A stretch of DNA of 64,000 nt from assembly GCA_036253495.1 (NCBI GenBank), contig GCA_036253495.1_4125.1; one strand, written 5' to 3'. Position 1 is the first letter of the stretch. The number at the start of each line of letters is the position of its first letter. The notes below the pieces were generated by a model. It worked only from the letters and a program-made list of their open reading frames with translations, was not told where the DNA came from and did not search any database. A program made the position numbers and the translations under genes. The stretch comes from a phage. Below, piece by piece: positions 1 through 24,599 of the stretch.

Positions 1-3000
1 TAATGCATAATAACGTCGATTTCTTGGAATCGTCTGTTAGGTGTGATAAAGTCACTTGGTAGTGAACCAATCTTTTCCCAACGTTGGGTTACGTCATTAA
101 ATTGTGCATATTCTAAATCCCAAATGTCTTTTTCAGTCTTAACCCACACACCATCAACTAAAATATAGCCATCTGGGTCAAGGTCATTACTGATACCATT
201 AATCAAATCATCATCAGAAGTTTTCTGTTCTATTTGAGAACGGATTTTGGTTCTGTATGGTTTAACTTCTTCGAAGTACTCAACAATTTGATTAATCAAG
301 TTGTCATTTGAGTAGTTTTGTACGAGAGATTGTTCTAAACCTACAATATAGATATATGAGGTTTTGAATACCCAGTCAACAACACTTTGTTCAGTGTGTA
401 CGTACTTAACCATATCAAAAACAATATTACTTTGATATAAGTTGAATGTATTTTTCAACAACGCTAACGCATTACGAACGTTAACCTCATGAGAATTCAA
501 AGAACCATCATCATTGTAAACATTGTACCCAGAATATAACATTGAATTCAATTCAACTGTACTATTCTCACGTCCAATAGCTTTCCAGTATATATTATTA
601 CGAGATGCAGTCTTGATGTATAATGTCCAAACACCATCACTATCAGTTACACGGATAATATCACCAATTTGGTAATTTTTAGTGTTTGCGTCATCTAAAC
701 TAACTTCTTGTGTATATTCAGTGTTGCTATCGTATCCAGTATCGTACCAATCAGCCAGATTCCAGTACTGGGTCATATCCAAAGATGTACCAAGTGATTC
801 TATGAAGTCAGCTTGTTTAATCATCTTGTGTTGACCTTCACCTCTATTTTCTAGAGTGATTGTAACAGTACTACCAACTGTACTTGGACTGTTCATCAAT
901 TGAATGTATCCATTTGGATCAATGTGAACAAAATATACTGAACTAGAAGATAATGGTGATGGCAGAGTTCCGATGGAACTTACAAATACTGCATCATTCT
1001 CTTTAAAGCGGTTATCTTCTGGTGCAATTACCAATTCATTGTTAAATGATAGAACACGGAATGTAATATCATTTGGGTTCATTTTTAATGTTTTCACATT
1101 AAACACATCATTCATAACAACACTGTTAGTTGTGATGTTCTGTGAACGGTAAAAGTTATTTGCACTCTCAACAAACGCACGACGAGCTTCAATGACATTC
1201 TGGAACCAAGTTTTATTAGAACCTAAACCAGTTTCAACTTTAGGATAAATTATTTCATTTACAACACCAGTTGAAGTAGTTTCTTGACCAATTAGTGAGT
1301 TCCATAGTGAATTCCAAATATCTGGGTTAAAGTCATAACTATCACCTTCTTTACAGAGTTGATATTGATCATGCTTCAGTACTTCGATATTGTCATTTCT
1401 ATATGAAATTGTCAAAATGCTTGTATCATCATTAACTTCAAATTGCATATTACTTAGAATGAAACTATTTTCATTAATAGGTGCAAACCAAGGAACATTC
1501 AATTGTGTTGGATCTTGAATAATACGTGCAATATCAGTACAAGACTTACTACGAGTAGTCATTGGTGGAACATAAATGGTATTACGAACCCAGAAATAAT
1601 AACGAACTACATATGTATCAGTGATTGGATCATATTCCATAGATGAACTGTAGTTCTCATCCATTGCAATCCCACTTGGGAGATACATAGTATTGTTTTT
1701 ATTTTTATTGGCTTGTTCTGCACAATATTTTTCCCAGTTGTATGGTTCTACTGGTGAACTAACCCATTCTAGAACATCAATAACACTGTGTGGTAATAAT
1801 TTACCCCAATTATAACGCTTATATTCATTAGTTGCTTTTACATCAACGTTACCATCCTCATCAAAGATTGGACGGGTATAATCCAGATAGAATGCAGTGC
1901 TAGTGTTCCACCACACTTTACCTACCTTTTCAGCACCCCATGCTTGTAATAGTTCACCGTTACTGCTATACTGTGCTGGGTCCACTGGAGAGATGAAATC
2001 AACATCTTGCATTGCAACCCCAGGAATAACACCGTTAATTGGGTCAAACACATTCAAATACAATGCAGTAATGTTTGTTCTTTCATCATACGTAGTAGGA
2101 CGGTCAAACAAAGTGCTTTCAGGTGCACTGTAACTATATTTTTTAGCAATATATTCATCGCGTTCTTGTTGAGTACTAAATCTACTAACATAACGATACA
2201 AACGTGGTGCTGATTCTACTGTTGAAAAGTCAATAGTAATGGAAGTGTCAAATGGCACTACCATAACTTTTGGATCTAGTCCAGAAGTGTAGTATTGGCA
2301 TTCATCACGTAGGGCATCAGGCATAAAGTTTGTTTCATCAACAAAATAATAATAATCACCATCATTGAGTGGGATATCATCAGACAATAGTACTTTACAA
2401 TATTGCTCAGCATATGGATCTTCACTTTCAATTGGTGTAATAGAAACCATTGTAATACCAGTATCTACTAAATCATACACATTCCATTCGTTATTGATAT
2501 CTTGGAACATCCAAACAGATGTTGGGATTTTACCAGAATTATTCATATAACTAATGCGGTCTTGATTTGCAGTTTCGTAATTTAATGTGGTATAATCAAT
2601 TTCATCTAGGGTTACTGGTCCAATATTAGGTAATTGGATATTCTCACTTCTCCCATTACGCATAGGGAATGAGAATTTACCTTTTGGACGACTAATCCAG
2701 CGTGAATCTTCACCAATTTCACCATAATATACAATTTCATTCTCAGATTCAACCTTATCGGAATAACGGTCAAACGTAATCATTTGTGGTTGTTGTTTAA
2801 ACTCATTATTAATTAGTTTAAATTGAAGATTTTTAACACCATCAATGTTACCATAAGAACCAACACGGAATGCCCATTCTTGTAATGCTTTATACTCATC
2901 AGTATTATATGATTTAGATACACGTAATACTTTTTCTAGTACTTGGTTAGTGCCTTTATCATGAATAAAACCTTTATAGAAATCAATTCGACCAGGCTCA

Positions 3001-6000
3001 TTAGTGATCATACGTTGTAAGTAATCACGAGACTGATAGCCAATTAAGTGGTTTGAAAGTTCATTTAATTGAACATCACTAACTGGGGTTTCATTATCAT
3101 AATAATGTTGGAAATTAGACACCAAAGTTTCAAATGATGGTAATGTCCCAGCTTCTAGGATGATAAATCCAGGAGCTTGTAAACGTCCAGACCATGAACC
3201 AGTGATATATCCATACAATTTAATCAATTCTTGAACTGCACCATAGGTTGGTTCATAGATATAATCACCGAAAATAGTCTGATCATCAAAAATAACAGCA
3301 TGTTCATAAGAACTGATACTTAAACGAATAAGTGCCATGCGTTTATTTGATTCTTCAGTAGTTCTTACCGTGAATATGTTACCAATACGAGATGTTTCAA
3401 TCTCAAATTGACGTATACCTTGGTTTGAATCATCTAATAATGACCAAACACCACCACTATTTTGTGCAATTGACTGAACTGAACCAAAATCTGTACCAAA
3501 TTTAGCATTAATTGCTGATGGGGTACAAGAAATGAATTCACCAGTACTCAATTGTTGTTGACTCCAGATTAAAAAGTCTTTTGCAATTGTATTCCAGTCC
3601 TGTTGGATACCAGATTCATCAACTTCTTCAAAAATCCAACCATGTTGCTTTAGATACTCACCATAACCACAAATAAATGTGTAAACTTCCTGGAAGGTAT
3701 TCATCAAAGTTCCGTAAGGAATGGATGCATCATTTTTCCACTCATTATAATGAACAACATTACGATTATCAACTTTCAAAGATACTTTATGACCGTTTTT
3801 AACAGGCAATTTATAATTGAATGTTGCAGAGACTAAATCATAACCATCAATTTGGTAAGCACTACCAGTCCAAGTAATTTTAATTGCACTCATTTGCTCA
3901 TTTCTAATATTATTAGAACGAACTAAACCGATAGATTGGTTTTCTTGTGAAATTAGACCAGTTGCTTCTGATGTAAATGTTAATTGATCAGCTTTAGTGA
4001 ATCCACCTAGTTTATGACCCACATTAATATGAGAAGAACGAACAATTTCACCGTACTTAGTTGTAATATTTTTGTTTTGATACATCAAATAATCACTAAC
4101 AATCATTTGATAACCAATAACGCGAGTACTATTCTCACCATGTACGATTGTATCACTATTAAAGTTCAAACGTAAACGAGTATCACCATATAAAAACTGT
4201 GGTTCATTACCAGATACAGTTTTTAATGTATTATTTCGGGTATCCCAGAAATAGTTTGTGAACTGTGCAGGTTTAGCTTTGAATAACATCAATAATTCAT
4301 CATATGCAAACATTGCTGTGTTCATATAAGTGAATTCCATATCACCCATATCACCATAAGTCCACGGTTCAGCACGATGATTTAGACTACCATATACAAG
4401 ACCTAAAACTTCAGGAGCAATGTACTCAATGACGCAAATATCAACACCAGATGCTGTCTGCTTGCCTGTTTCAGTGATCTTAAATGGTTGTGTACCAAAA
4501 CGTTTGTACTTGTCATATTGACCTTTACGTGCACCAAACAAGATAGTACCCGTTGAGCTATCACCTTTCTCGTTACCAACGTCCCATAACCCACTAGGAA
4601 CCATGTTACCTTGTTCGTTGATAACTAATGCCTCATATACATAAACAACATCACCATCACGTTCGCCAACTTGAACTGCGGTAGGTTCATATTCCTGGTT
4701 CCACCAAACTGGACGTTGGGAGAAACCAAACATTTCCCACGGATGGGTTGCTGGGCGATATGTACCAAATTGGTCAGTGTAGATTGCTCGCCATGATCCA
4801 CGTGCTTCTATTTGTGTTTGTTGACCATTAACCATATAATGTGTTCCAGTATAGTTCCAAGTCATCCAGTTATTTGGATCATAATCATGTGAACTGTTAC
4901 TGATACCATTGGTTGCGATGAAATTAATATAACCACGTAGTAGTAAGTTCTTTTTCTCTTCGTCATTATACTCTGTATCTCTGAAATACGGAGTTGGGAA
5001 AAGATCAGAAGCATCTAGCTTAGGTTGGTAATCTTCATCTTTGAAAATAACATCAATACTATTGAAAATTCTATTTTCTAACTCATATATAACGTCATCC
5101 ATTTTATCAACACCGTTTATTACACGGTATGCTTTAGTGATTGCACCTGTATGACTGATGTTATAACAGCTTTGCTTACTACCAGCATTCAAAAATGTTG
5201 CTTTTTCTGGAACGTGTGCTTTCAAAATACCCAAAAACTGTGGAGTTGGTGGTACAAACGCACGAATGAAGCCAGAAGTACTTGCTACGTTATCATAATA
5301 GAATGGGAAAGTATTATCATGACCCATATTAATAATTGTTAGAATTTCATCAACAATATTAGAAGCATTATTAGCTAAGAAGTTTGCTGGGTTCTCATTG
5401 TACAAACGGATCATTTGTGTATTGAACTTGTTTACGAAACGGAAATATTCGGATTGCATAAACAATACAGATTCAAATAGGTCAATATCTTCATTTGCAG
5501 AATGTGCCATTAACGGTAGCATTGATGCTTCGTTTTGAATAATCTTAGTACCAACGGAGTTATCCACTAAACCTTTAGACAAACGATCTTCGTAGTCGTT
5601 GAAATCATCAACGGAACCACTGGTGATATTCTTTTGAATGATATCTTTAAAATGTAATGTAAAATTACTTTGGTTGATATAAAGAATATTATCGTTGTAT
5701 GGGTTATTTTGTAAATTGATTGGGATTTCATATGCACCCAACTCTTTATTTGGTACTTCAGTACTGCTGTATGTTCTAATTTGAATCACTGATTCATCTT
5801 TAAGAGCTACATCTTCACCTAAAGTGATGCTTTGAACCTTGTTATTATATACATGACGTGTATAATCGGTTACATCAACTCCATCAACTTGAATTTCAAT
5901 GATTTCGGTACTCTTACCATCAATAATTTTCTGGGCTAATTCAAATGTGCGATTGAAACGTTCACTTTGAATACCTTCACCACTAATTACATGCCAATCC

Positions 6001-7538
6001 ATATAGGTTTGACGTTCTTCTTTGTAATATTGATAGGTACGATCCACTTCAGTAACATATGCATACATACCTTCTAATGGATTTTTAAAGTTTTCCATTT
6101 CGAATACAGTATTGAATACACGATACATATCAGTGTGTTCTATTTGTGGCGTTTGTTTAACGAATTGCTTTGAATCTTCCTTAGAACGAACCCAATCGGT
6201 CTTAAGGTGTAGTTCATTATCTTTACCAACTACATTATAGTAGTACAATCCAGAAATTTCAGTTTCAACACCCAAATGATCATATGTATAACGAACACTT
6301 TGTAGGAAGTTTTCGTACATATAGTAATTATAATTACCTAGTTCGATATTATAACCATATACTTTATCAGTGCCGTAATTATAGTTGATTTTAAAACCAA
6401 ATAGGGATGAACCATCAAAATTACTTGATGGATAAATTGTAGAATCATTTAATTTAAAACCATCACGGTCATATAATTGGAATTGTGGGAATACGTTTAC
6501 ACCAGATTTTGTTTGTGCTCTAATCCAGTTAACACCATTCCAGTACATGGATGTATTTTTATATACATTACCATCACGCACCAAAATAACATCACCATTA
6601 TGTGGCTCACCACTTGGGCGGTCATCAGTTTCTTCATCTGGGTCCAATGCTAGACCATATGTGCGAGAACCATCTTGCATTTTCTTAATAAAAACTTTAT
6701 AAATGCGGTTGTTTTCACCAACGTTACCTATACTAGTGAAAAGAATACGCATACCATCTTGTGGAATAATCCCGTCAATACGAATACCATCATTTACGTC
6801 TTTTTGGACGATATCTTCTGGTTTAATTGTATCAGAGAAAAGATCCACAACACCACGGAAATGTGTCCCGTAGTTAATTAATTCGATATTTTTATTGTAC
6901 TCGATGATTGGTGCTTGTGCACGAATAAAACGAGTATCTTGTGTCATGTCAGCAGTTAGTACTGTTCCATCTTCTAGTGTTTGACCAATAGTATACCAAA
7001 AGTTCTGTAGGGACCATGTGTTTCCGTTATCAGCACCACGTTCCATAACAATAAAGTCAGGAGTTGTGATACCATAACTATTTTTACTATCCCACAAATA
7101 GGAACTGTAGTTGGTCATTTTGTTTGGGTTAATTGGTGGTGTCCAAGAATAGAACTTACCAGAAAATAGACGGCTCTCGTTTGAAGTTAACGTGCCGTAG
7201 TGTTCCATGTAGCCAACCAAATCATCATAAAATTGAAGCGAACGAATGCTTGTGTCATCATTACGAGACACATATGCTGTTGATAATTGATATAGCTGAC
7301 GTTCAACGGTTGCTTCGTCAAGGAAAATCTTAGCAGATGCAGCAGGAGAACCCATATCACCAATATATCCATCAACGATTTCATTATCCGCTGGATTGAA
7401 CCATTGTTGAATTACATCATCACTAACCTTTTGAATGTCTTCTAAGCCTTGCATCCATTCAGGTAATCTTTTAATGAAAAGCTTCTGTTGTACTGCTTCT
7501 GCCGTTTTAGTTGGTAGAAACTTAAAATTATTAGTCAT
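1..7538 (-). CDS. giant virion/tail-associated protein, partial (>2,500 codons; C-terminus lies beyond window start)
   Basis: Minus-strand frame starts at ATG 7536-7538 (GGAG about 9 nt upstream); no long minus ORF with a stop is listed in the track for 1-7538 and the first 120 nt checked by hand carry no in-frame stop, so the frame runs off the window; plus-strand ORFs here are short shadow ORFs; follows baseplate genes on the same strand. Confidence 0.6.
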   Translation of the reverse strand, partial: MTNNFKFLPTKTAEAVQQKLFIKRLPEWMQGLEDIQKVSDDVIQQWFNPADNEIVDGYIGDMGSPAASAKIFLDEATVERQLYQLSTAYVSRNDDTSIRSLQFYDDLVGYMEHYGTLTSNESRLFSGKFYSWTPPINPNKMTNYSSYLWDSKNSYGITTPDFIVMERGADNGNTWSLQNFWYTIGQTLEDGTVLTADMTQDTRFIRAQAPIIEYNKNIELINYGTHFRGVVDLFSDTIKPEDIVQKDVNDGIRIDGIIPQDGMRILFTSIGNVGENNRIYKVFIKKMQDGSRTYGLALDPDEETDDRPSGEPHNGDVILVRDGNVYKNTSMYWNGVNWIRAQTKSGVNVFPQFQLYDRDGFKLNDSTIYPSSNFDGSSLFGFKINYNYGTDKVYGYNIELGNYNYYMYENFLQSVRYTYDHLGVETEISGLYYYNVVGKDNELHLKTDWVRSKEDSKQFVKQTPQIEHTDMYRVFNTVFEMENFKNPLEGMYAYVTEVDRTYQYYKEERQTYMDWHVISGEGIQSERFNRTFELAQKIIDGKSTEIIEIQVDGVDVTDYTRHVYNNKVQSITLGEDVALKDESVIQIRTYSSTEVPNKELGAYEIPINLQNNPYNDNILYINQSNFTLHFKDIIQKNITSGSVDDFNDYEDRLSKGLVDNSVGTKIIQNEASMLPLMAHSANEDIDLFESVLFMQSEYFRFVNKFNTQMIRLYNENPANFLANNASNIVDEILTIINMGHDNTFPFYYDNVASTSGFIRAFVPPTPQFLGILKAHVPEKATFLNAGSKQSCYNISHTGAITKAYRVINGVDKMDDVIYELENRIFNSIDVIFKDEDYQPKLDASDLFPTPYFRDTEYNDEEKKNLLLRGYINFIATNGISNSSHDYDPNNWMTWNYTGTHYMVNGQQTQIEARGSWRAIYTDQFGTYRPATHPWEMFGFSQRPVWWNQEYEPTAVQVGERDGDVVYVYEALVINEQGNMVPSGLWDVGNEKGDSSTGTILFGARKGQYDKYKRFGTQPFKITETGKQTASGVDICVIEYIAPEVLGLVYGSLNHRAEPWTYGDMGDMEFTYMNTAMFAYDELLMLFKAKPAQFTNYFWDTRNNTLKTVSGNEPQFLYGDTRLRLNFNSDTIVHGENSTRVIGYQMIVSDYLMYQNKNITTKYGEIVRSSHINVGHKLGGFTKADQLTFTSEATGLISQENQSIGLVRSNNIRNEQMSAIKITWTGSAYQIDGYDLVSATFNYKLPVKNGHKVSLKVDNRNVVHYNEWKNDASIPYGTLMNTFQEVYTFICGYGEYLKQHGWIFEEVDESGIQQDWNTIAKDFLIWSQQQLSTGEFISCTPSAINAKFGTDFGSVQSIAQNSGGVWSLLDDSNQGIRQFEIETSRIGNIFTVRTTEESNKRMALIRLSISSYEHAVIFDDQTIFGDYIYEPTYGAVQELIKLYGYITGSWSGRLQAPGFIILEAGTLPSFETLVSNFQHYYDNETPVSDVQLNELSNHLIGYQSRDYLQRMITNEPGRIDFYKGFIHDKGTNQVLEKVLRVSKSYNTDEYKALQEWAFRVGSYGNIDGVKNLQFKLINNEFKQQPQMITFDRYSDKVESENEIVYYGEIGEDSRWISRPKGKFSFPMRNGRSENIQLPNIGPVTLDEIDYTTLNYETANQDRISYMNNSGKIPTSVWMFQDINNEWNVYDLVDTGITMVSITPIESEDPYAEQYCKVLLSDDIPLNDGDYYYFVDETNFMPDALRDECQYYTSGLDPKVMVVPFDTSITIDFSTVESAPRLYRYVSRFSTQQERDEYIAKKYSYSAPESTLFDRPTTYDERTNITALYLNVFDPINGVIPGVAMQDVDFISPVDPAQYSSNGELLQAWGAEKVGKVWWNTSTAFYLDYTRPIFDEDGNVDVKATNEYKRYNWGKLLPHSVIDVLEWVSSPVEPYNWEKYCAEQANKNKNNTMYLPSGIAMDENYSSSMEYDPITDTYVVRYYFWVRNTIYVPPMTTRSKSCTDIARIIQDPTQLNVPWFAPINENSFILSNMQFEVNDDTSILTISYRNDNIEVLKHDQYQLCKEGDSYDFNPDIWNSLWNSLIGQETTSTGVVNEIIYPKVETGLGSNKTWFQNVIEARRAFVESANNFYRSQNITTNSVVMNDVFNVKTLKMNPNDITFRVLSFNNELVIAPEDNRFKENDAVFVSSIGTLPSPLSSSSVYFVHIDPNGYIQLMNSPSTVGSTVTITLENRGEGQHKMIKQADFIESLGTSLDMTQYWNLADWYDTGYDSNTEYTQEVSLDDANTKNYQIGDIIRVTDSDGVWTLYIKTASRNNIYWKAIGRENSTVELNSMLYSGYNVYNDDGSLNSHEVNVRNALALLKNTFNLYQSNIVFDMVKYVHTEQSVVDWVFKTSYIYIVGLEQSLVQNYSNDNLINQIVEYFEEVKPYRTKIRSQIEQKTSDDDLINGISNDLDPDGYILVDGVWVKTEKDIWDLEYAQFNDVTQRWEKIGSLPSDFITPNRRFQEIDVIMH

Positions 7539-7574
7539 GTATAGGACTCCATAAATTCGTTCATTCATTTGATT

Positions 7575-7582
7575 TATTTATG
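7575..7582 (-). promoter_or_regulatory. late-promoter-like motif CATAAATA upstream of giant ORF
   Basis: Plus-strand tatttatg = minus CATAAATA, about 36 nt upstream of ATG at 7538; resembles T4 late promoter TATAAATA. Confidence 0.4.
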
Positions 7583-7583
7583 C

Positions 7584-7610
7584 TATAAAAAAGGCGACCC
7601 GAAGGCCGCC
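7584..7610 (-). terminator. rho-independent terminator after baseplate-J-like gene
   Basis: Minus-strand hairpin GGCGGCC-TTCG-GGTCGCC followed by T-run (plus-strand A-run 7585-7590). Confidence 0.55.
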
Positions 7611-7619
7611 ACGATTTTA

Positions 7620-10600
7620 TTAAAAACCAATATTAATATTACTTTTAGCTAGAGAGTTAACGATTTGTACGTTATCAACGGTAGCAGTACTAATGAATAT
7701 TTGGTCAGGTCTAGAAGGTATCTCAAACAATGAACCAAACTTAGAATTAGGGTTTTGAGCTACAATTACAACAGTACTAATGTGTCTACCAAGTTGGGTA
7801 TGAAGGTACGTACACAAATCAGTATAATAGAAACTTTCACCAAAATCCCAGTTCTCAACTGCAAAGTACTGGTTAGTTAATGAAACAATATTTTGACGAA
7901 TTTCATCATCACTCATTGTACTATTAGGTAATTTCACTACTTTGAAATCAGCTTTATAATCCGGTGCTGCACTATTACCAAATAAAGGCAAATATTCAGC
8001 ACTGTGCCATATCAAACTATCACTAATTACAGTTTTCTTCTCAACATCCTTGAAGATATCTTGTAATTCAACCGATGTTGGTGGTTTAGGCATATCACCT
8101 TTAGCACCATTCTTCAACCAAATATCAACTTCTGTCTTATATGAGTTTGTTAAAACATACATATCAATTAAGTTGGTTCTGCTTGGGTCGATTCGATTAT
8201 CATCTGGTGCATAATGCTTCCAGTGGAAGTTAATAGACGTTCTAGCATTAGTTTTTATAGTAAGTTCAGATGTAATATCCTTATAACCATAATAATTAAG
8301 CTTTTTATTAGCGTCAACACTTGTACCCATGTTTTTAATACAACGATAGAAAGCAGTTTCTGGAGTAGCCGCACTTGGGTCTGTAACTTCAGTCATGTTC
8401 TGAATTAGAACACCCAAACGGTCATTGTTATTACCAACTGTTTGTTCGATGAAGTAATATTGCCCTTCGTATTGGAATGCAATAATAAAACCAGTACCTT
8501 TACTATATAGTTCACTTAGTGTAGTTGAGCGAATTTCATTATTACGAATGAATTCTTGTCTCTTGTACGCATTAGTTTCCGCTAATGCCTGATCCATTGT
8601 GTAATTCCATGTTGAATCCATGATAGTGAATGATGAATTTGGTAATGTCAATGAAGAAATAGTAAAATCTTCATTTTGTTGAAATACCAATATACCACCA
8701 TATTTTCTAGAATCTTCACCTGTCCAATCAGGAACAATAGATTGGAATTGGTTAGGATTTAATGGAATACCATTACTATCCATACTTTCTGATGTAATTA
8801 CAACTCTTGAACCATCCAAATAACCATTTTCTTGTTTTATTGTATCCAGAATCTGGAAATCAATGTTATTGGTTAGACCCACGTTACTAGTACTGGTAGA
8901 GTTTGATGAAAGAATCTCAATTTTATCACTTTGCACTGAACCAGAACTAATATCAGTGATTTTCTTAGAGCTTACAAAGTAAAAACGAACTTTTTCTCCA
9001 CCAACAAATACATACTCAACACCATTGGAATCAAATTCCCATGTTTCAGCAGTGTATTGGATGTTAACCATCACCTGTACTAACGAACCATTGTATGTTA
9101 TAGTATCACTAGTGGTTGTCATTTCCAAAGGAACCCATGTAGTGGATACAATATCATAAATTAGAATAAAGTTAGTTTTCTTATCTAACATTGCAGCAAT
9201 ATTTTGTACTTCAACTGTGTTGAAACGAGTTCTATATGGGCTAATGTACTCCTGAATCTGCATAGAGGAAGAAATAGGCGTACTTAGAACATAAAAACCG
9301 TTAGGTAACACGCTAACAATACTAGCCCATACGATATTATTTGAACTACTACCGAATTTAATTAATGTACCAACTTTATAATCACCATAAATTGTACCAG
9401 TTGCCCCAATAATACGACCATATGTATTAGTTGCATAGCTTGAACTATATGATGGAACCCAGTTTTGTTGTAATTCAACACGTACTGTATTCTGCGGATA
9501 TGCTTGATACTTCTGAATAACAGCATTTTCACCAATTAATGGTTGTATATCATCGATAACAATACTAGAATTAGATTTAGTACTTGGTAAATTAACAGAT
9601 TTATTGTATTTGGTGACATTTTTGTACATTGCACCATCATCACTAAACACATCAGTGTTTTGATACTTACCAGTTGGGTCATTTATGTCAATAAATCGTG
9701 ATTGTCCACTGTAAATTCGGTTAATCGCTTTAGATTTCAGTACTGCATTACCTTGACTCAACGGAGCAATGTTATAATCTTCACCATTCACAAAACGGTT
9801 TTGTGTATAATACATTTGTGGTGCACGAGCTTTAATTTGTTCAAGGGTTTCTGCACTTTGTGCACGGTCTGATTCAAATTGTAAACTAAATTTAATATCT
9901 AATGTACTATTCTCATAGTTAGATTGTGATTTAGTTCTGTAAATGTACTTAACACTTTTGTTTTGAATGTCAGCAGTTTTGATGTTGTATGTTTCGCCAT
10001 TACTAACACGATACCAAACGCGATATGTACCACGTGGAACAACACCACTACGTGAATCAGGGAACTTAATACTGATTTGGTCACGATCACGAGTAGTTAC
10101 CGCATAAATTGTTTTAAGTTGGCGTGTTACAGTGTTATATGCGATACTTTCCATCGATGGAACCTTAGTCCATTTAGTACGAACTATACCATCTTCAGTG
10201 ATTTCCTGTACCCATACGTCAGTTTCGTTAATATTGTCTACGTTTATATCCTGAATACGGTTTTCTTGTCTTACATCGTATTGGAAATCTTGATATTGTA
10301 ATGTTCCTTGAATAAAATAAACAAAGAATCCAGTATTAGGTGAACTAAAACCATTACCATCATTCTGATACACAATATATTTCTGTTCTTGTGGCTCAGG
10401 GTGTCTTTCATCAACACCAATAACGTTAATATCTGGGTTTACGACTTCAAATGTCATCGATTCACCATTTACTGTTGCGGTGAATGGTAAATTAGGTGCA
10501 GACATAGGTAAAGTGTTCATTCTATACAAATGACGAGACACACCATTAATATCTAAACGTTTTACTGGATTACCAAACTGGTTAGTACTGACAAATGCAC

Positions 10601-11084
10601 TATTCATCACCAGAATAAAGTTTTCATACCAGTTAGAGTCCATTGGGTCATTCCAACGGATAATTTTATCTTTAAGAGATTCGTTATAGCTGTTGCGAAC
10701 GTCTTGGTTAGTTTTAATTTCAGTTAGTTTTGCTGTTGCTCGCCCTGGATATGCACGACGAGGTGAATATGAGATCATTTTAGCTAATTTAAGTACAGAT
10801 GCACGACGACTAGCAGTATCTAGGAAGTTTTCACGCGTGTTTAAATCCATACGAAATGCTAAGTTTTGTCCAAGCATCGCAATGGTATCTAAAATGAAGA
10901 TAAACTGGTCATTCTCAATCCAGTCATTGAATGAATCAGGATATGTTTGACGCAAATAATCAATCATACTTTGACGTATAGTATCGAAGTCATAAGCCGT
11001 CAGATTTATTTTATAGAAACTTTCATATACCTGGGTCCAGTCTTCCCCCGCGTATAAATTAGATTGTCTTTTTTGTTGTGACAT
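7620..11084 (-). CDS. baseplate wedge protein, baseplate-J (T4 gp6)-like N-terminus with long C-terminal extension
   Basis: 1154-aa ORF; N-terminal region shows the baseplate-J pattern (YDFDTIRQSMIDYL...FLDTASRRASVLKLA); position next to gp25-like gene; AAGGA RBS. Confidence 0.5.
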   Translation of the reverse strand: MSQQKRQSNLYAGEDWTQVYESFYKINLTAYDFDTIRQSMIDYLRQTYPDSFNDWIENDQFIFILDTIAMLGQNLAFRMDLNTRENFLDTASRRASVLKLAKMISYSPRRAYPGRATAKLTEIKTNQDVRNSYNESLKDKIIRWNDPMDSNWYENFILVMNSAFVSTNQFGNPVKRLDINGVSRHLYRMNTLPMSAPNLPFTATVNGESMTFEVVNPDINVIGVDERHPEPQEQKYIVYQNDGNGFSSPNTGFFVYFIQGTLQYQDFQYDVRQENRIQDINVDNINETDVWVQEITEDGIVRTKWTKVPSMESIAYNTVTRQLKTIYAVTTRDRDQISIKFPDSRSGVVPRGTYRVWYRVSNGETYNIKTADIQNKSVKYIYRTKSQSNYENSTLDIKFSLQFESDRAQSAETLEQIKARAPQMYYTQNRFVNGEDYNIAPLSQGNAVLKSKAINRIYSGQSRFIDINDPTGKYQNTDVFSDDGAMYKNVTKYNKSVNLPSTKSNSSIVIDDIQPLIGENAVIQKYQAYPQNTVRVELQQNWVPSYSSSYATNTYGRIIGATGTIYGDYKVGTLIKFGSSSNNIVWASIVSVLPNGFYVLSTPISSSMQIQEYISPYRTRFNTVEVQNIAAMLDKKTNFILIYDIVSTTWVPLEMTTTSDTITYNGSLVQVMVNIQYTAETWEFDSNGVEYVFVGGEKVRFYFVSSKKITDISSGSVQSDKIEILSSNSTSTSNVGLTNNIDFQILDTIKQENGYLDGSRVVITSESMDSNGIPLNPNQFQSIVPDWTGEDSRKYGGILVFQQNEDFTISSLTLPNSSFTIMDSTWNYTMDQALAETNAYKRQEFIRNNEIRSTTLSELYSKGTGFIIAFQYEGQYYFIEQTVGNNNDRLGVLIQNMTEVTDPSAATPETAFYRCIKNMGTSVDANKKLNYYGYKDITSELTIKTNARTSINFHWKHYAPDDNRIDPSRTNLIDMYVLTNSYKTEVDIWLKNGAKGDMPKPPTSVELQDIFKDVEKKTVISDSLIWHSAEYLPLFGNSAAPDYKADFKVVKLPNSTMSDDEIRQNIVSLTNQYFAVENWDFGESFYYTDLCTYLHTQLGRHISTVVIVAQNPNSKFGSLFEIPSRPDQIFISTATVDNVQIVNSLAKSNINIGF

Positions 11085-11183: not shown

Positions 11184-11579
11184 TTATAATTTAGATGTTG
11201 TGAATGTCGCCATTCTATTATTACTTCTGGCATCAAACACTATAGTTAGTTGTTCTAATTTATCAAGCATTACATACTCTAAAATTATATCCAAACGATA
11301 ACCATATTCAACATTACTAACTGTTAGATTTTTTAAATTCAAACGTGGGTCTAATGAAATAATTCTACGAGCGTCAGCTTCTAAAAGATTTTTTGTATTA
11401 TAACCATCAAGTTCAAAAATCAAATCCCAAGCAATGAAACCATAATCAGCATCAAATGCTCTTTCACCTTTCTTTGTATTGAAGTGGTTCATCAAATCCT
11501 GTCTCACCAACTCAGCATCATACAGAGTTTGTGTTTTACCCACAACAGGAGTAGAGAAACCTTTAAAAACTATTGCCAT
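11184..11579 (-). CDS. baseplate wedge subunit, gp25/GPW family
   Basis: 131 aa; size and motif pattern (FDADYGFIAWDLIFE...LDPRLNL...GYRLDIILEYV) match the gp25/GPW lysozyme-fold baseplate family. Confidence 0.7.
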   Translation of the reverse strand: MAIVFKGFSTPVVGKTQTLYDAELVRQDLMNHFNTKKGERAFDADYGFIAWDLIFELDGYNTKNLLEADARRIISLDPRLNLKNLTVSNVEYGYRLDIILEYVMLDKLEQLTIVFDARSNNRMATFTTSKL

Positions 11580-11592
11580 AGACTTTCCTCAT

Positions 11593-12081
11593 TTATACGG
11601 ATTCAACAATCCTTGCCATTTTTTCAGCACGAGAAGTTGTTTGACGATACCAAGCGGAATCACGCATTTCTTTGCCAGCGGTTTTATAATCACCACGACC
11701 CAATGCTGCCATTGCTTTCTTAAAGTTCAATACACGAGATTTACCCATTTGGAATACCATCATCCAAAGTACACGTTGTACTTGAATAGGTGCAGTCATT
11801 CCGAATTGATCGTAAATCTCTTTTGCTTCTCTGTATGCATTTAGGGAATCTTTTTGAAGTAATGCTTCAGCTTCAGCTTCCGTTAGCCCTGCACTGAAAT
11901 TTTCACCTTTTAGTACTAAGTGACCATATCCAATGGTATCTAGTCCTAGGCTATCTTTATAAACTCTGAATTTACCATTCTTGAAATAACCTAATTTAGT
12001 TTGGAAAGCAATAGTACCTTCAAACTCTTTAATTTCTTTCAAATACTGTGCATCATCAGGTTTAATTTCCCATTTACTCAT
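11593..12081 (-). CDS. e: T4-type lysozyme (endolysin, GH24)
   Basis: 162 aa; YKDSLGLDTIGYGHL, VFQMGKSRV and SAWYRQTTSRAEKMARIV align to T4 lysozyme motifs (YKDTEGYYTIGIGHL, VFQMGETGV, SRWYNQTPNRAKRVI). Confidence 0.85.
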   Translation of the reverse strand: MSKWEIKPDDAQYLKEIKEFEGTIAFQTKLGYFKNGKFRVYKDSLGLDTIGYGHLVLKGENFSAGLTEAEAEALLQKDSLNAYREAKEIYDQFGMTAPIQVQRVLWMMVFQMGKSRVLNFKKAMAALGRGDYKTAGKEMRDSAWYRQTTSRAEKMARIVESV

Positions 12082-12115: not shown

Positions 12116-14779
12116 TTATTGACATGCCTCAATTCTACGTGCCATTAACTCTGCACGACGAGTTGTTTGACGATACCAAGCGGAACTACGTATATGAGCA
12201 GCAGCACCACGATAATCACCTTTAGCTAAACATCCAAGCATACCCTTGAATTTTTGAACTTTGTATTTGCCCATTTGGAATACCATTTGACATAGTACTT
12301 GTTGAGCAATAACAGGTGTTTTTAAATCCCAGGCCGCATATATTGATTTGGCATCATTAATTGCTTGCGTACTGTCTCGTACTAATATTGCTTCAGCTTC
12401 TGCTTCAGTTATACCACCAGAAAAATCTTCACCTCCGACAATAAGGTGTCCATATCCAATTGTAGGGAATCCACGGCTATCAATATAACGCCAGAATTTT
12501 CCATTTCTGAAATATCCAAGTGCTGTTTGATATTGGATAGTACCTTCGTGTTCTTTAAGTTCGGATATAAATTGGGAATCACCCGGAGCAACTTTCCATC
12601 CAACGGCAGTTTTATCAACATTACCTACATTATAATTTTGTTCAACTTTTGGAGCGGTTCCTGCATTTCGAGGCTTACGTTCTCTACGACGAGGAACATG
12701 ACGAGAACCACGTTGTGAATAACCAGTTCCAATAGTTCGTATGCGAGTTGATATTACCAATTCATCACTATCAGCAGATGGTCTGACCACATCTTTAGGG
12801 TTATTTTGTGTTGATGGTTGACCACCAATTAATGTTTTATTCGCCGCAGCAGAACCCTGACCAGTTACAGTTGTGTAGAATAATCCAGGATCAACTGAAC
12901 CACTAAAACCATAGATATTAGATGAGCGAACTCTTATTTCAAATCGTAATATACCATTAGCAGTTCCTATTACTTGTCCTTTTTCAACAACATCTTTATT
13001 GAATAGGTCAGAAGTTAAACCATAGAAAACAGATTTATAACCAGATTTATGCTCAACAATAAGAGCATCACCACTGATACCAACAATCCCACCATCTGGT
13101 GCAACCACACTTCCACGGGCTTGAATTTCCCATCCACTACTATCACGCTTGGTTCCATTCTCGGTCGTTACACCCTTACCCCAATAACCATTCTGGCGAA
13201 TAGTACCGCTACATGGCATAAGCATATGCAAACCTTCAAACGTCTGCGAATAACCAGTCATTCCTGGTTCAGCCGCCATTAAATCTTGTGTTTGAACTTC
13301 ACTTGTCTCTGGGGCATAATTTACAAATTGAATTGCTTCTGTTTCTTGTTGCTCTGCAAGTGTAGGTTGAACATCATTTGCTGGTTGTGGCTCAACTGGA
13401 GATGTTGTACTACCTTGACCACCACCACTTATACCAGGATCAACCCTATCACCGTGGTTTTCTGCATCTTTCCAGTTAGCAATCATATGAATGTGGTCAT
13501 TAAGACCCACTGATGGAGTTTTGAAGTCAGGAGCCATGAATGCAGCACTACCACTATTACCTGCACTATCAACCGTTAGGTTTTGACCACCACCACTAAT
13601 GTTAACGGATGAACCACCAATAACGTTTGCTGAGGATGAACCTTTAATAGATGCAGTTGACCCAGCCGTAATATCAGTACTGCTACCACTTTGAAGACGT
13701 AATGAAGCACCAGTAACCAAACGAAGATCAGCACCAGAATTAATTACAACCTGACCATTGACCTTAGCATCCAAATTACCGACCAATTCCAGTTTGGTAT
13801 TTCCACCAACACGAGTATTGAAGTCTTGCCCACTTTCAATATTATAAGAACGACCTGCAACCATGTTAATATCTTGACCTGCACGAATGTTTATGTTTTT
13901 ATCACAGTGCATTTCAATATCACCATCGCCAGTGAATTTAATACGAGCCGTACCATCACGGTTAATTAATAAAACATTACCAGTGGCTTCAGAAATAAGA
14001 AGTTGTGCACCACTACGTGTTTTAATAACAATACCTTCATTCTTTCTGGAACCAACACGAGTGTCATTAACTGGGTTGTTAAATTGTGTGTCTTGGTATC
14101 CATCAGGGTCTTGATCCCATGTTGGCTTGGTCAATTCTTCTTCTGTATATCCATCATCAAGAATAAAACTATTACCACGAGGTGTACTCATACCATATAC
14201 AGTACTGGTTGTTTGACGAGTACTGCTGCGGTTTGCAACACCTGCTTCATCATCGTATAATAAGTTTTGTTTTTTCAATCCTTCAACAGCAGGAACGTTA
14301 ATATATTTGTCTTGCATGTCAGTTGTGATTGTGTTACGATCATAATCAGTTACTGGTAATGGCATATCAGTACCATTGTAATTGGTATCCGCAGTTGCCA
14401 TTCCAGGAACCATTGTATTCATACGTTGGTCATAAACACATCCAATCCAGTAAGCTTGGAATGTACGTGCTTGTGCAAAAATAACAACAACAGTACATCC
14501 CACATCTGGTGGAACGGCCCAAAAACCATAACCCTTTGGATATTGTCCATAACTATCTGCACTCGGTATTCCTGGAGTTTTGCCAGCAAACGGAGCCATA
14601 TAAGAAGCTTCAATCCATGAATCTTTAGAGTTTTTATCACTTTGTGAACCTTGTATCCATACTTTTAGCTTACCAGATTTCGTAGGATCACGGTTATCCA
14701 TAACGGTTGCTAATTGTGGATAAGATGGGTCAAAACGACCCAACTGTTCCTTTGCATACTTTTTACTTGTATCTGCCAT
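12116..14779 (-). CDS. baseplate hub/spike protein (gp5-like) with internal M23-peptidase-like region and C-terminal T4-type lysozyme domain
   Basis: 887 aa; Gly/Ser-rich repetitive central region (beta-helix-like); segment GYWGKGV...HKSGYKSVFYGL...GQVIGTANGILRFEI resembles LytM/M23; C-terminal 150 aa paralogous to the adjacent lysozyme. Confidence 0.7.
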   Translation of the reverse strand: MADTSKKYAKEQLGRFDPSYPQLATVMDNRDPTKSGKLKVWIQGSQSDKNSKDSWIEASYMAPFAGKTPGIPSADSYGQYPKGYGFWAVPPDVGCTVVVIFAQARTFQAYWIGCVYDQRMNTMVPGMATADTNYNGTDMPLPVTDYDRNTITTDMQDKYINVPAVEGLKKQNLLYDDEAGVANRSSTRQTTSTVYGMSTPRGNSFILDDGYTEEELTKPTWDQDPDGYQDTQFNNPVNDTRVGSRKNEGIVIKTRSGAQLLISEATGNVLLINRDGTARIKFTGDGDIEMHCDKNINIRAGQDINMVAGRSYNIESGQDFNTRVGGNTKLELVGNLDAKVNGQVVINSGADLRLVTGASLRLQSGSSTDITAGSTASIKGSSSANVIGGSSVNISGGGQNLTVDSAGNSGSAAFMAPDFKTPSVGLNDHIHMIANWKDAENHGDRVDPGISGGGQGSTTSPVEPQPANDVQPTLAEQQETEAIQFVNYAPETSEVQTQDLMAAEPGMTGYSQTFEGLHMLMPCSGTIRQNGYWGKGVTTENGTKRDSSGWEIQARGSVVAPDGGIVGISGDALIVEHKSGYKSVFYGLTSDLFNKDVVEKGQVIGTANGILRFEIRVRSSNIYGFSGSVDPGLFYTTVTGQGSAAANKTLIGGQPSTQNNPKDVVRPSADSDELVISTRIRTIGTGYSQRGSRHVPRRRERKPRNAGTAPKVEQNYNVGNVDKTAVGWKVAPGDSQFISELKEHEGTIQYQTALGYFRNGKFWRYIDSRGFPTIGYGHLIVGGEDFSGGITEAEAEAILVRDSTQAINDAKSIYAAWDLKTPVIAQQVLCQMVFQMGKYKVQKFKGMLGCLAKGDYRGAAAHIRSSAWYRQTTRRAELMARRIEACQ

Positions 14780-18058: not shown

Positions 18059-18110
18059 ATTAGCGATGGCACACGGATTGTGCCTATTGGTCATTACATG
18101 GAGAGTTACA

Positions 18111-18950
18111 ATGATAAACAAGCCGAAGCGTAAGAAGTATCTGAATAACGCAGACTTATTACGTGAAATACATAAAAGTAAGATATCATACTGCTGGCTT
18201 TTGGATAAAAGTTATGGTATGTATGATTATATTGTGTTTCATGAGTCTGAAATCACAGAAGAATTACTTGAAAAGGCAAAAGCAGCACGAATCAAACGTT
18301 TGAATAATGAAATGCTTGATAGTGTTCGCGAAAAAGAGAATATGAGTGCTAAGAAAGCAAAGGAATATGCTGATGAGCACGGTCTATTCGTAAATGATGT
18401 ACCACTGGATGAAGTGGTGATTAGAGTTATCACTGATGAGCACATTCCACCAGATACACGAGTGAATTTTGAACCATTTAAACATTATATCGTTGATAAT
18501 GAAGGTATTCTGTATGAAGTTGTTCGTTCACATTGGAAAGGCGACTTGGAAGATGGCGATTTCTGCTTAACACATGGTAAAATCACAAATGAACTCGGTA
18601 AAATGTTCATTAAACTAGCCGAAGAGATCTCTCACAAATCTAACTACAGAAATTATACGTATTTGGATGAAATGATGGGTGATGCTAGAATACAATTAGT
18701 TAAAAATGCACTTCTCTTTAAAGAGAGTATCTTGTATAAGAAAGATAAACCCGCTGTCCAACTAAATCCTTTCTCATACTATACGTCATTCGTTAACAAT
18801 AGCTTCCGTTCTATTTTGAACAGTGAGAAGAATGTACGTAACATTCGCGACGACCTTCTTGAGATGCATGGTTTTACACCATCACATACAAGACAGATTG
18901 AAATCGAAATGAATATGATTGAAAGGAAAAATGACGATGGCACTATTTGA
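18111..18950 (+). CDS. 55: late sigma factor (T4 gp55-like) with internal extension
   Basis: N-terminus KPKRKKYLNNADLLREI resembles T4 gp55 (KPKYNYVNNKELLQAI) and C-terminal NPFSYYTSFVNNSFRSIL resembles NPHAYITQACFNAFVQRI; start placed at ATG with GGAGAG RBS. Confidence 0.65.
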   Translation: MINKPKRKKYLNNADLLREIHKSKISYCWLLDKSYGMYDYIVFHESEITEELLEKAKAARIKRLNNEMLDSVREKENMSAKKAKEYADEHGLFVNDVPLDEVVIRVITDEHIPPDTRVNFEPFKHYIVDNEGILYEVVRSHWKGDLEDGDFCLTHGKITNELGKMFIKLAEEISHKSNYRNYTYLDEMMGDARIQLVKNALLFKESILYKKDKPAVQLNPFSYYTSFVNNSFRSILNSEKNVRNIRDDLLEMHGFTPSHTRQIEIEMNMIERKNDDGTI

Positions 18951-22161: not shown

Positions 22162-22637
22162 ATATCTAACATGTTTAATTTGCCGTCCTTAATAAGCTTC
22201 CTAGCCTGTTTTACACGAGCAGTAGTGTTGCTACAAGGGACAACTCCTAACCCTTCCAGAATCGCGTTTTGCTGCGTTGCTGGGAGCCTTTTAAACTTAT
22301 TAACATCCACAGTTAATGCCGTGTGATGAATCACTTGCTCTTCTGGTGGAATATTATTGTTCTTTTCAAGATAATCTGCCAGATTTCTTAGTACTTCATG
22401 AAGAGGTTTATCAGTTAAATGACGCAAGTATCGATTGAAAGAGTTCTGCACCTTACCTTCCCATGCGTTAACCTCATTTTGTAGAACTTCTCTACAATGC
22501 TGGTTTTCGAAGTGATAGTGGTCGAGTACTGGTTTCTTAATCGGTTCCTTGATTATAGGATCAATACCTTTTTGCTTTTTTAATAATTCATTTCTGTACG
22601 TAGCAGCTTCCTTACTATCTTTAAGTCTTCGTTTCAT
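22146..22637 (-). CDS. Endonuclease VII-like (His-Me finger) protein lacking the canonical Zn-ligand cysteines
   Basis: 163 aa; LDHYHFEN and NAWEGKVQNSFNR align with T4 Endo VII LDHDHELN and NAAEGQMKHKFNR; only one Cys present. Confidence 0.45.
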   Translation of the reverse strand: MKRRLKDSKEAATYRNELLKKQKGIDPIIKEPIKKPVLDHYHFENQHCREVLQNEVNAWEGKVQNSFNRYLRHLTDKPLHEVLRNLADYLEKNNNIPPEEQVIHHTALTVDVNKFKRLPATQQNAILEGLGVVPCSNTTARVKQARKLIKDGKLNMLDIKKGS

Positions 22638-22731
22638 AATGTGCCTTAGATCTAAGTTAGTTTATGAAATATTTATGAAATACATTCCTAAGAAATTTTT
22701 AAGTACTTTTTTATAAAAAAGATTAGATATT

Positions 22732-22761
22732 TTGAGACACTTTTAAATTGCGTGCTATAAT
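22732..22761 (+). promoter_or_regulatory. strong sigma70-type promoter (TTGAGA-18 nt-TGcTATAAT) firing into ORF-free region
   Basis: -35 TTGAGA at 22732-22737, extended -10 TGCTATAAT at 22753-22761. Confidence 0.6.
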
Positions 22762-22766
22762 GTTTC

Positions 22767-23246
22767 ATGTAGTACTGACAATCCTGTTGAATGCAGAAAT
22801 GCATATAAATTAGAACCTAATCCACTCGAAAATGTAGAGGGTAGATGAGCAGTTCAACAGTGCGATGAGCAAAAGAAACCCGTTAGATGTGGGCATATTA
22901 TGAACCCCTCACGGCGACACGGCTCAATAAAGAACTCCGATAAGCATACAGAGAGTTCCTCGATAGATGTATAAGGATCGCACCTTACCAGATATGCTAA
23001 GGGAGTTTGATGATTCATTTCATTAAACAGCCTGAAGTTTGATTGTATAGACTTTCAGGTGAGTGTCAGGATGTTTAAGACTGACGACCGTTGCACATGA
23101 CTGCGATAGAGAGAAACAGAGCAACCCGCTTTCGTTCTTAATATTTTTTACAATATAATTACGTTTAAATTTTAAGAAATTCGCAATACAATAATACCGA
23201 TGCCATCAGCGTCAAGAAACAGAGACTTAATTGTCTCTTTTTTATT
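22767..23246 (+). ncRNA. candidate non-coding RNA (about 480 nt) between promoter and terminator; identity unknown
   Basis: No ORF longer than about 25 codons with an RBS on either strand; several stem-loops (e.g. CCTGAAGT...ACTTTCAGG, GTCAG...CTGAC); ends at hairpin AGAGAC-TTAATT-GTCTCT plus T-run at 23220-23246. Confidence 0.3.
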
Positions 23247-23473
23247 ATCTTCATTCCCCTGCGGGGGGATGAAATATCCTCAACAAATCCCGTCAAGTAT
23301 TAAATCATTTAAAGTTCTTTATAATTATATTAAAATGAATATGAGTTAACGTAGTTAACGAATATTCTTCAGCTAACGAATGAAATGAGTTAGATGAGTT
23401 CAATATAAATCAAATGAATTCCTTCAAGAATAAATCTTTTAAGATCATAATTTCTTTCATCTACTTTGTAAGT

Positions 23474-23519
23474 AAAAACCCAAAAAAACAAAAACAAAAA
23501 ACCAGCAACAATGTGCTGG
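23474..23519 (-). terminator. rho-independent terminator (minus strand)
   Basis: Minus-strand hairpin CCAGCA-CATTGT-TGCTGG followed by a long T-run (plus-strand A-rich tract 23474-23501). Confidence 0.6.
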
Positions 23520-23532
23520 CTTCTTATGAGTA

Positions 23533-23694
23533 TTAGTGCTTCTCGTTCATCTTCTTTACTTTCTTATTGTATGCCTTAATAAGCATATCTCTGTCATTTA
23601 CTGGCATATTAAGTAGAGTTGCATAATCGACATTATCTACATAAACAGCAGCATCCATAAGGGCATTTTTAATATCTGATTTATTCAACTCCAT
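23533..23694 (-). CDS. small ORF (53 aa) or -1 frameshift extension of the upstream 295-aa protein
   Basis: Frame open from the slippery T TTT TTC site inside the upstream gene to a TAA 14 nt before the terminator; internal ATG at 23694 with weak RBS. Confidence 0.3.
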   Translation of the reverse strand: MELNKSDIKNALMDAAVYVDNVDYATLLNMPVNDRDMLIKAYNKKVKKMNEKH

Positions 23695-23711
23695 ATCATC
23701 CAGAAGTTCTT

Positions 23712-24599
23712 TTATTTCTTCTGGGTTTGAGAAGAGAAGCTGAGATCGAAAAAATGAGTAGGGTCATACTTTAATCCAGTAAGTTCCCATTGATGCTGAC
23801 ATTCAATACATTCAACTTCCATTGTATGCGATACACCAATCTCTAGTACTTCATCCATTTTCTCTCTGATTTGCTTGATCACTTCTTTTGATTGAGTACC
23901 TAACCATTCACTTATGAATTTCTTATCTGATACTTCATCACCATCAGGAGTAATTACCTTATCAATAACTCCAGCAATCATATCAAAGTTTAGTTGTGCC
24001 ATGTTTTCAAATACTTCAGAAAACATTTTAATTTTATCATCTTCAGAAATATCAATAGTACTTTCAAGATACTTAGTTTTTTGCTGTTCAGCTAACATAC
24101 GTTGAGAAAACTCTGAATATTCTTTCCAAGTAAGTGGTCTGAACTGAAGAGACAAACCATTATTAAGATCAATACTAGGAATTTCAGTAAAAGATTCTGC
24201 CGTTTCCAATAGATAAGAAAGATCACGTTCAAAACGGCCTTCTTTGGAACATGATGGACATACGACATTGACATCATAACTGGTTTCTTTGGATGCTAAC
24301 TTGATAGCAATAAGAATTTGCTCAACATCATTGACAAAAAGCTCATCTGCGTTTAGAATGTTTGGTACACAGTTTTCGATAACAGATGACACTGCACTAC
24401 CATTGAGTAACATATCAGGTGTATTGAGCATCATTTCGTCACGAGCACTACGAGCACAGACACCACATTTAATGCCTTTGCTCCCCAATACACCATCTTT
24501 GTACTGGAAAATGTTGTTAGTGACGAGTTTAGTACTAATTTCTTCGATTTTTGTGTATTTTGCTAACGGGTTCATTGACATAATACTTTCTCCATGCAA
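23712..24599 (-). CDS. hypothetical protein with three CxxC pairs (possible Zn-binding)
   Basis: 295-aa ORF; CGVC, CPSC and CIEC motifs; no recognisable NTPase motif. Confidence 0.6.
   Translation of the reverse strand: MHGESIMSMNPLAKYTKIEEISTKLVTNNIFQYKDGVLGSKGIKCGVCARSARDEMMLNTPDMLLNGSAVSSVIENCVPNILNADELFVNDVEQILIAIKLASKETSYDVNVVCPSCSKEGRFERDLSYLLETAESFTEIPSIDLNNGLSLQFRPLTWKEYSEFSQRMLAEQQKTKYLESTIDISEDDKIKMFSEVFENMAQLNFDMIAGVIDKVITPDGDEVSDKKFISEWLGTQSKEVIKQIREKMDEVLEIGVSHTMEVECIECQHQWELTGLKYDPTHFFDLSFSSQTQKK

Follow-up and report, generated by a model that had tools for sequence, protein, structure and literature searches.

A giant virion protein encoded beside the baseplate wedge genes of jumbo phages, with a proposed role in the outer baseplate

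One edge of the phage DNA analysed here (a stretch of 64,000 nucleotides, called the window below) is taken up by a minus-strand frame that stays open through the first 7.5 kb and runs off the end, next to baseplate genes. An initial annotation read this frame as one protein of more than 2,500 aa, either a fusion of several fibre or wedge modules or a novel giant virion protein. Is the frame one gene, and what could so large a protein do beside the baseplate?

On the minus strand of bases 1-8200, the frame contains just three stops, at 7622, 7619 and 7580, compared with 136 and 445 in the other two frames. From 7579 it thus runs without a stop to the left edge of the window, confirming the initial reading. 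With about 0.067 stops expected per random codon from the base composition (the window has 35.7% G+C), the chance of 2,512 stop-free codons is estimated as roughly 1e-75.

3..7538, minus strand: giant gene, first 2,512 of 3,325 codons (open frame, A4 match, PHROG 10938, dN/dS).

Over bases 1-7600, identity to Escherichia phage A4 (ON286972.1) is 99.7%; A4 is a 355,528-bp Asteriusvirus isolated on E. coli LF82 and related to RaK2 and 121Q. The same region is ~77% identical to 121Q, PBECO4, phAPEC6 and other RaK2-like jumbo coliphages. The A4 version of the gene, A4_580, is annotated as "structural protein" (9,978 nt, 3,325 aa) and is flanked by A4_581, "baseplate wedge". Measured against the 3,325 aa of the full A4 frame, the window covers residues 1-2512 and leaves 813 codons beyond its left edge, so that a protein of more than 2,500 aa does run off the window. 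The window and A4 differ at 22 nucleotides and 8 amino acids within the frame. The full-length protein is 382 kDa with a pI of 4.6, and its orthologues include A4_580, 121Q gp582 and phAPEC6 gp245. Residues 1-2512 match PHROG 10938, "virion structural protein", collinearly over profile positions 1-2513 of 3324 with 4355 bits.

In the comparison with 121Q, nine of the ten full 250-codon segments give dN/dS values of 0.06-0.22; for residues 2253-2502 the synonymous sites are saturated and dN/dS is not computable. The frame is coding and under purifying selection wherever dN/dS is measurable, and the giant gene is real and single. Of the matching GenBank records listed, most place one annotated feature across the match, and in 45 of 55 a single site accounts for at least 80% of the query. 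The orthologous region is split into 3-18 CDS in the records of K64-1 (NC_027399), CMSTMSU (MH494197) and the Salmonella phages SD-1_S14 and SD-6_S16 (OR699183, OR699182). The tblastn match is broken into 3-7 pieces in CMSTMSU and both Salmonella SD records, but not in K64-1. Sequencing or assembly frameshifts, rather than true gene splits, are likely to lie behind the multi-CDS records.

The start region was read from the sequence, and the elements that the initial annotation had claimed there, an ATG with a GGAG ribosome-binding site and a motif of its own, are all in place (7538; 7550-7547; CATAAATA at 7582-7575).

7538-7536, minus strand: start ATG of the giant gene (sequence read; the family consensus starts at 7538).
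7547..7550, minus strand: GGAG ribosome-binding site, 8 nt 5′ of ATG 7538 (sequence read).
7566..7568, minus strand: alternative in-frame ATG, 30 nt 5′ of ATG 7538, used by some gene callers and adding the 10-aa extension MNERIYGVLY.
7575..7582, minus strand: CATAAATA, which resembles the T4-type late promoter (TATAAATA) by motif match; its late-promoter role is predicted.
7587..7610, minus strand: intrinsic terminator between the gp6-like and giant genes, GGCGGCC-TTCG-GGTCGCC plus a T run (hairpin 7610-7593 with 7 pairs, 6 of them G-C, then TTTTTT).
18066..18950, plus strand: gp55-like late sigma factor gene, beside the baseplate block (PHROG 12791 and 234).

Among the 57 in-frame ATGs screened, only ATG 7538 is preceded by a Shine-Dalgarno-like motif. 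Internal starts that could divide the frame into several genes were looked for, and no internal ATG carries a Shine-Dalgarno sequence. The ATG at 7566..7568 is located roughly at the predicted 5′ end of the transcript. A metagenome gene call (P0001) of 3,335 aa includes the MNERIYGVLY extension, but this ATG is probably not the true start, as it has no ribosome-binding site and the family consensus begins at 7538.

Reading along the minus strand toward the giant gene, the order is the stops TAATAA, the hairpin, TTTTTT, CATAAATA, GGAG and ATG 7538, with 24 nt separating CATAAATA from GGAG. The 8-mer [C/T]ATAAATA also occurs shortly 5′ of several other late-gene starts in the window; its sites include 7582, 18027, 22677 and 24619 on the minus strand and 25217, 31082, 32296 and 36031 on the plus strand. 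This late-type 8-mer shows no overall enrichment relative to shuffles. By motif likeness, CATAAATA at 7575..7582 would function as a late promoter. With a strong terminator between the two wedge genes and a late-type motif of its own for the giant gene, the expression levels of the two might differ, which is speculation.

Upstream of the giant gene, the same-strand genes are gp53-like (104 aa), a 716-aa structural gene, gp5-like, a lysozyme paralogue, gp25-like and gp6-like.

7620..11084, minus strand: gp6-like wedge protein of 1,154 aa, next gene upstream of the giant gene (PHROG 10646 and 219 'baseplate wedge subunit'; T4 gp6 N-terminus matched by BLASTP and hhalign).
11184..11579, minus strand: gp25-like wedge and sheath-initiator protein (Pfam GPW_gp25, E 3.9e-9; PHROG 43).
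11593-12081, minus strand: lysozyme ORF, 162 aa, 55% identical to residues 728-885 of the gp5-like hub protein.
12116..14779, minus strand: gp5-like protein of 887 aa combining hub, spike and lysozyme (Phage_base_V and Phage_lysozyme above the Pfam cut-offs, a weaker Peptidase_M23 match below threshold; PHROG 13211).

The giant gene had been placed directly downstream of a baseplate-J-like gene. The position holds; the neighbour at 7620-11084 is gp6-like, with no Pfam Baseplate_J match. Its hhalign match to the T4 gp6 N-terminus has an E value of 5.5e-4, obtained from three sequences only. This gp6-like protein is greatly expanded (1,154 aa vs 660 aa in T4) and recognisably gp6-like in its first ~100 residues only. 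Judged by its sequence, the 162-aa lysozyme is a free-standing paralogue, a tandem duplication, as a separate gene, of the C-terminal lysozyme domain of the hub protein. Elsewhere, ~1 kb at 22637-23712 has no ORF of at least 80 aa on either strand, and no tRNA genes were found within the 64-kb window.

The order gp25-like, gp6-like, giant is found in five lineages: the window, 121Q, PA5oct, Atu_ph07 and a metagenome contig whose giant homologue is 5,069 aa and 25% identical. The genes that follow the giant gene are fibre-type in PA5oct and Atu_ph07, and one with a Collar domain follows in the metagenome contig. Thus, the giant gene lies directly after a gp6/J/TssF homologue and before peripheral or fibre genes, which is the gp7/gpI/TssG-type position. 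The fibre-type proteins after the giant gene in PA5oct (L004 20254-23438) and Atu_ph07 (L003 26845-28668) have in common a short N-terminal segment matching phrog_14394. Such N-termini may be a common anchor for baseplate docking.

The giant gene is already known from GenBank annotation, a PHROG family and orthologues in virion proteomes. The phAPEC6 orthologue, gp245, is recorded as hypothetical, with a mass of 381.88 kDa and 17 unique peptides in purified virions, and it adjoins gp244, "baseplate wedge" (PMC7247149). The GenBank record of the PA5oct homologue (3,857 aa) includes an ESI-MS/MS note. Incorporation into virions is thereby shown for these two orthologues. Therefore, of the proposed "novel giant virion protein", the giant size and the virion part stand, whereas novelty does not: A4_580 is annotated, PHROG 10938 exists, and the phAPEC6 and PA5oct orthologues have been found in virions by mass spectrometry. 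In PA5oct, gp128, the neighbour of the giant gene, is named among its two largest proteins (PMC7318152). RsoM2USA has a 2,541-aa homologue beside its wedge gene (PMC8504454), in the order ORF362 then ORF361. The function of the giant protein is undiscussed in the phAPEC6, PA5oct and RsoM2USA papers, and likewise in the phiKp24 structure paper, the RaK2 adsorption-complex paper and a 2026 jumbo-phage review.

How widespread such proteins are was addressed by homologue searches. The first search gave 174 clusters at 90% identity (E <= 0.001), and the best 120 of these are all 3,100-5,200 aa. A profile of the N-terminal 460 residues (residues 1-460), run against 1.84 billion representatives, gave 1,671 clusters at 50% identity, 827 of them with E <= 1e-30. 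Among the best 150 of the 1,671 clusters, the match starts at or near the protein N-terminus, and nearly all members are 3,000-6,281 aa; the shorter sequences look like contig-truncated fragments. Apart from these presumed fragments, no shorter, ordinary relatives of the N-terminal module are among the best 150. The family is present in RaK2-like phages of Escherichia, Klebsiella, Salmonella, Erwinia, Pectobacterium, Cronobacter, Serratia, Yersinia and Xanthomonas, and also in PA5oct-like Pseudomonas phages, Atu_ph07, Sinorhizobium phage Phosso, XacN1 and RAS14.

Alignments of these homologues divide the protein into a conserved, collinear core of ~2,450 aa and three variable regions, located after residue ~150, at ~1670-1800 and in the C-terminal ~870 residues.

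6159..7538, minus strand: signature module at the N-terminus (residues 1-460), one of the best-conserved parts (its profile finds the 1,671 clusters; identity table).
2139..2531, minus strand: variable hot spot, residues ~1670-1800, where distant homologues insert up to ~540 aa, including FG-GAP repeats (homologue alignments).
189..788, minus strand: last conserved core block, residues 2251-2450, with the motifs VDWVFKTSYI and EVKPYRTKIR (alignments, identity table).
3..188, minus strand: beginning of the C-terminal region that evolves fast, residues 2451-3325, most of which the window does not include (BLAST coverage, identity drop).

Of the members listed by the first search, the 49 most distant (P0072-P0120) are collinear with residues 1 to ~2450, and BLAST coverage beyond is essentially nil. 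One of them, P0081, has a ~540-aa insertion in the 1700 region with FG-GAP repeats, and a CBM_5_12 module in its C-terminal region. Some other family members contain a TIG domain. Among RaK2-like phages, the C-terminal part evolves fastest, with 54-61% identity to 121Q-type proteins vs ~80% for the core. This pattern is suggestive of a conserved scaffold with variable modules that would face outward.

The same distant homologues (P0072-P0120) have an extra insert of <100 to >300 aa after residue ~150. The insert motif G[ML]R[IV]xF...N..[FL]IVEGVG.SI.L resembles 'DGMRILFTS..NNRIYKV' of the window protein (residues ~260-283, window ~6690-6760, minus strand), a likeness that suggests an ancient duplication of a small beta domain.

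Structures were predicted with AF2. The model of residues 1-1141, from a 22-row alignment, has a mean pLDDT of 84.6 and a pTM of 0.78, and shows helical, alpha/beta and beta-rich domains packed compactly together. Residues 1-60 are predicted as helices of low confidence, with helices at residues 10-47, as would be expected if this N-terminal segment of ~60 residues folds only on a partner. The model of residues 1100-2299 is of lower quality (pLDDT 72.5, pTM 0.48), with low-confidence stretches at 1100-1170 and in a conserved helical segment at ~1443-1551. A Foldseek search of the PDB with the model of residues 1-1141 returned nothing at E <= 0.001, and the predicted models have no fold similarity to solved gp7-like wedge proteins. 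Whole-chain fold searches are insensitive for multidomain models, so small shared domains may have been missed. Sequence searches of the PDB with the single protein and with a 14-sequence profile gave zero matches at E up to 10.

We conceived that the giant protein, not homologous to gp7, works in the gp7 slot, builds the baseplate periphery and anchors fibres, and we give this reading a probability of about 0.55. The proposal follows from the gene order, which resembles P2 W-J-I-H and T4 6-7-8-9-10, together with the finding that the gp7-like wedge part is a hot spot for re-engineering and fibre attachment in contractile systems (PMC8894135). In these systems, the wedge core consists of two gp6-like domains and one gp7-like chain. 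In RaK2, the fibre anchor gp528 binds with its N-terminus a baseplate partner left unnamed (PMC10253068).

The mechanism could proceed as follows. First, the giant protein would take the slot of gp7 in T4, of gpI in P2, or of TssG or the gp7-like part of Afp12/Alg12 in other systems. Second, its N-terminus would join the gp6-like wedge dimer, perhaps in a heterotrimer of the (gp6)2-gp7 kind with core bundle and trifurcation unit, for which the low-confidence helices at residues 10-47 are the one hint. Third, the conserved body of ~2,450 residues, in which numerous small beta-rich and alpha/beta domains follow one another without repetition, would build an enlarged outer baseplate. Fourth, the variable insertions and the fast-evolving C-terminal 870 residues would face outward, and dock the fibre system and/or touch the cell surface. 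We infer the baseplate location, the gp7-like role, the fibre docking and the copy number alike. Six copies would amount to ~2.3 MDa, which is close to T4 gp7, gp8 and gp10 together.

A bolder form of the gp7-slot reading, which we regard as tentative and rather doubtful, is that a single polypeptide of 3,000-6,300 residues, made of folds without solved relatives, takes over from the whole multi-protein T4-type peripheral baseplate (the functions of gp7-gp11) across a jumbo-myophage clade that is very large and for the most part uncultured, and serves as a docking hub for branched fibres.

Homology to known wedge proteins was examined by hhalign. The family profiles scored <1% probability against T4 gp7 alone, against a 7-member gp7 profile (T4 to KVP40-like), against T4 gp6 and the gp6-like neighbour family, and against P2 gpI and ~100 gpI homologues. 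The ~100-homologue gpI set added little, since its members are at least 70% identical to the query and make a poor template profile. As a positive control, the same method recovered the gp6 link of the neighbour gene. Because all homology tests failed, the claim is that the giant protein works in place of gp7, not that it is a gp7. An N-terminal likeness to gpI, 'LLP..E....WNP', is visual only and was rejected for want of statistical support.

The giant protein could alternatively be sited elsewhere in the virion: it might make up the unusual hairs or the decorations on sheath, collar or capsid in phages of the 121Q/phAPEC6 type, or be carried inside the particle or ejected from it. phAPEC6 carries hairy fibres, on its capsid and at three levels of its tail, that are unassigned, along with decoration proteins likewise unassigned (PMC7247149). 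Mass spectrometry shows only that the protein is in the virion, and the fold and homology searches gave no link to the baseplate. On the other hand, adjacency to the gp25-like and gp6-like genes is kept as far as PA5oct, Atu_ph07 and the metagenomic phage, the late-type motif of the giant gene sits inside the baseplate gene block, and a compact, non-repetitive multidomain structure is predicted, which does not resemble thin hairs. A site elsewhere is thus unlikely.

It is improbable that the giant protein is itself a tail fibre or the primary receptor-binding protein. Its very large size, its fastest-evolving C-terminus, the carbohydrate-binding or adhesion-type domains of distant homologues (CBM_5_12, FG-GAP, TIG) and weak fold resemblances to the N-terminal parts of tailspikes would all suit such a role. 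However, fibrous architecture, whether repetitive or trimeric, was not found in it (no beta-helix, coiled coil, collar or fibre domain), self-BLAST detected no internal sequence repeats, and the AF2 model is a compact multidomain fold, not an extended fibre. The 2,450-aa core is kept across phages of E. coli, Klebsiella, Erwinia, Xanthomonas, Pseudomonas and Agrobacterium. In addition, RaK2 fibres are already explained by gp526-534 and gp098 (PMC10253068), and separate fibre genes follow the giant gene in three lineages.

A fusion of recognisable T4-type wedge or fibre modules (gp7-gp12), the other idea of the initial annotation, is very improbable. The profile comparisons detected no similarity to T4 gp7, T4 gp6 or P2 gpI and leave the fusion unsupported. 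The domain and repeat analysis that had been suggested for it adds only the repeat-free self-BLAST and a Pfam search (E up to 10) of the window protein, 14 full-length members and 14 N-terminal modules, which gave nothing relevant, with no Tail_P2_I, TssG or Baseplate_J.

Finally, the possibility that the long frame is artefactual, or that it merges several genes, is effectively refuted in spite of the split records, by the single features in most other records, the lengths of nearly all of the top 150 representatives (3,000-6,300 aa), the dN/dS of 0.06-0.22 wherever computable, the internal starts all lacking a ribosome-binding site, and the 381.9-kDa product identified by mass spectrometry in phAPEC6.

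The giant protein is among the largest proteins of these phages, and its family, of at least 1,671 clusters at 50% identity, is nearly always giant. Its gene occupies the gp7/TssG-type wedge slot of every other contractile system, yet without detectable homology. If a single polypeptide does replace the peripheral baseplate, it would be a non-homologous solution to an otherwise universal slot. If it is the outer baseplate and fibre-docking hub, it would be the missing link from the well-studied branched fibres of the RaK2/phiKp24 type to the contraction trigger. It makes a clear target for cryo-EM of the baseplate in therapeutic jumbo coliphages and Klebsiella phages.

Among known systems, the closest are the RaK2-like orthologues (A4_580, 121Q gp582, phAPEC6 gp245, and those of RaK2, K64-1, CBB and GAP32; PHROG 10938). 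They are the same gene, of ~3,320-3,345 aa, in the same place after the gp6-like gene; those other than A4 have 64-78% amino-acid identity over residues 1-2512, A4 has 99.7% nucleotide identity, and nothing substantive differs. Distant members, namely PA5oct (3,857 aa), Atu_ph07 (4,449 aa), Phosso, XacN1, RAS14, RsoM2USA (2,541 aa) and >1,600 metagenomic clusters, share the core (residues 1 to ~2450), the N-terminal signature module and synteny with gp25-like and gp6-like genes. They differ in having 23-30% identity, large lineage-specific insertions after ~150 and at ~1700-1800, and unrelated C-terminal regions, some with FG-GAP, CBM_5_12 or TIG domains. The N-terminal region of CBA120 TSP4, with T4 gp10-like XD domains (PDB 7rfv), is also counted among the closest known systems.

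P2 gpI, T6SS TssG and the gp7-like part of Afp12/Pvc12/Alg12 are positional equivalents, each encoded by the second wedge gene after a J/TssF/gp6 homologue and followed by fibre genes. They have 176 to ~1,000 aa, unlike the giant protein, and hhalign to gpI was negative. The giant protein is three times larger than T4 gp7 (1,032 aa) and has no sequence, profile or fold similarity to it; the two N-termini, too, share nothing detectable by sequence or profile comparison. Still, the T4 gp7 gene lies directly after gene 6, as the giant gene lies after its gp6-like neighbour, and the role proposed as common to both is to link the gp6 ring to the peripheral baseplate and fibres. The T4 order 6-7-8-9-10 and the P2 order W-J-I-H are both mirrored by the order gp25-like, gp6-like, giant and fibre genes.
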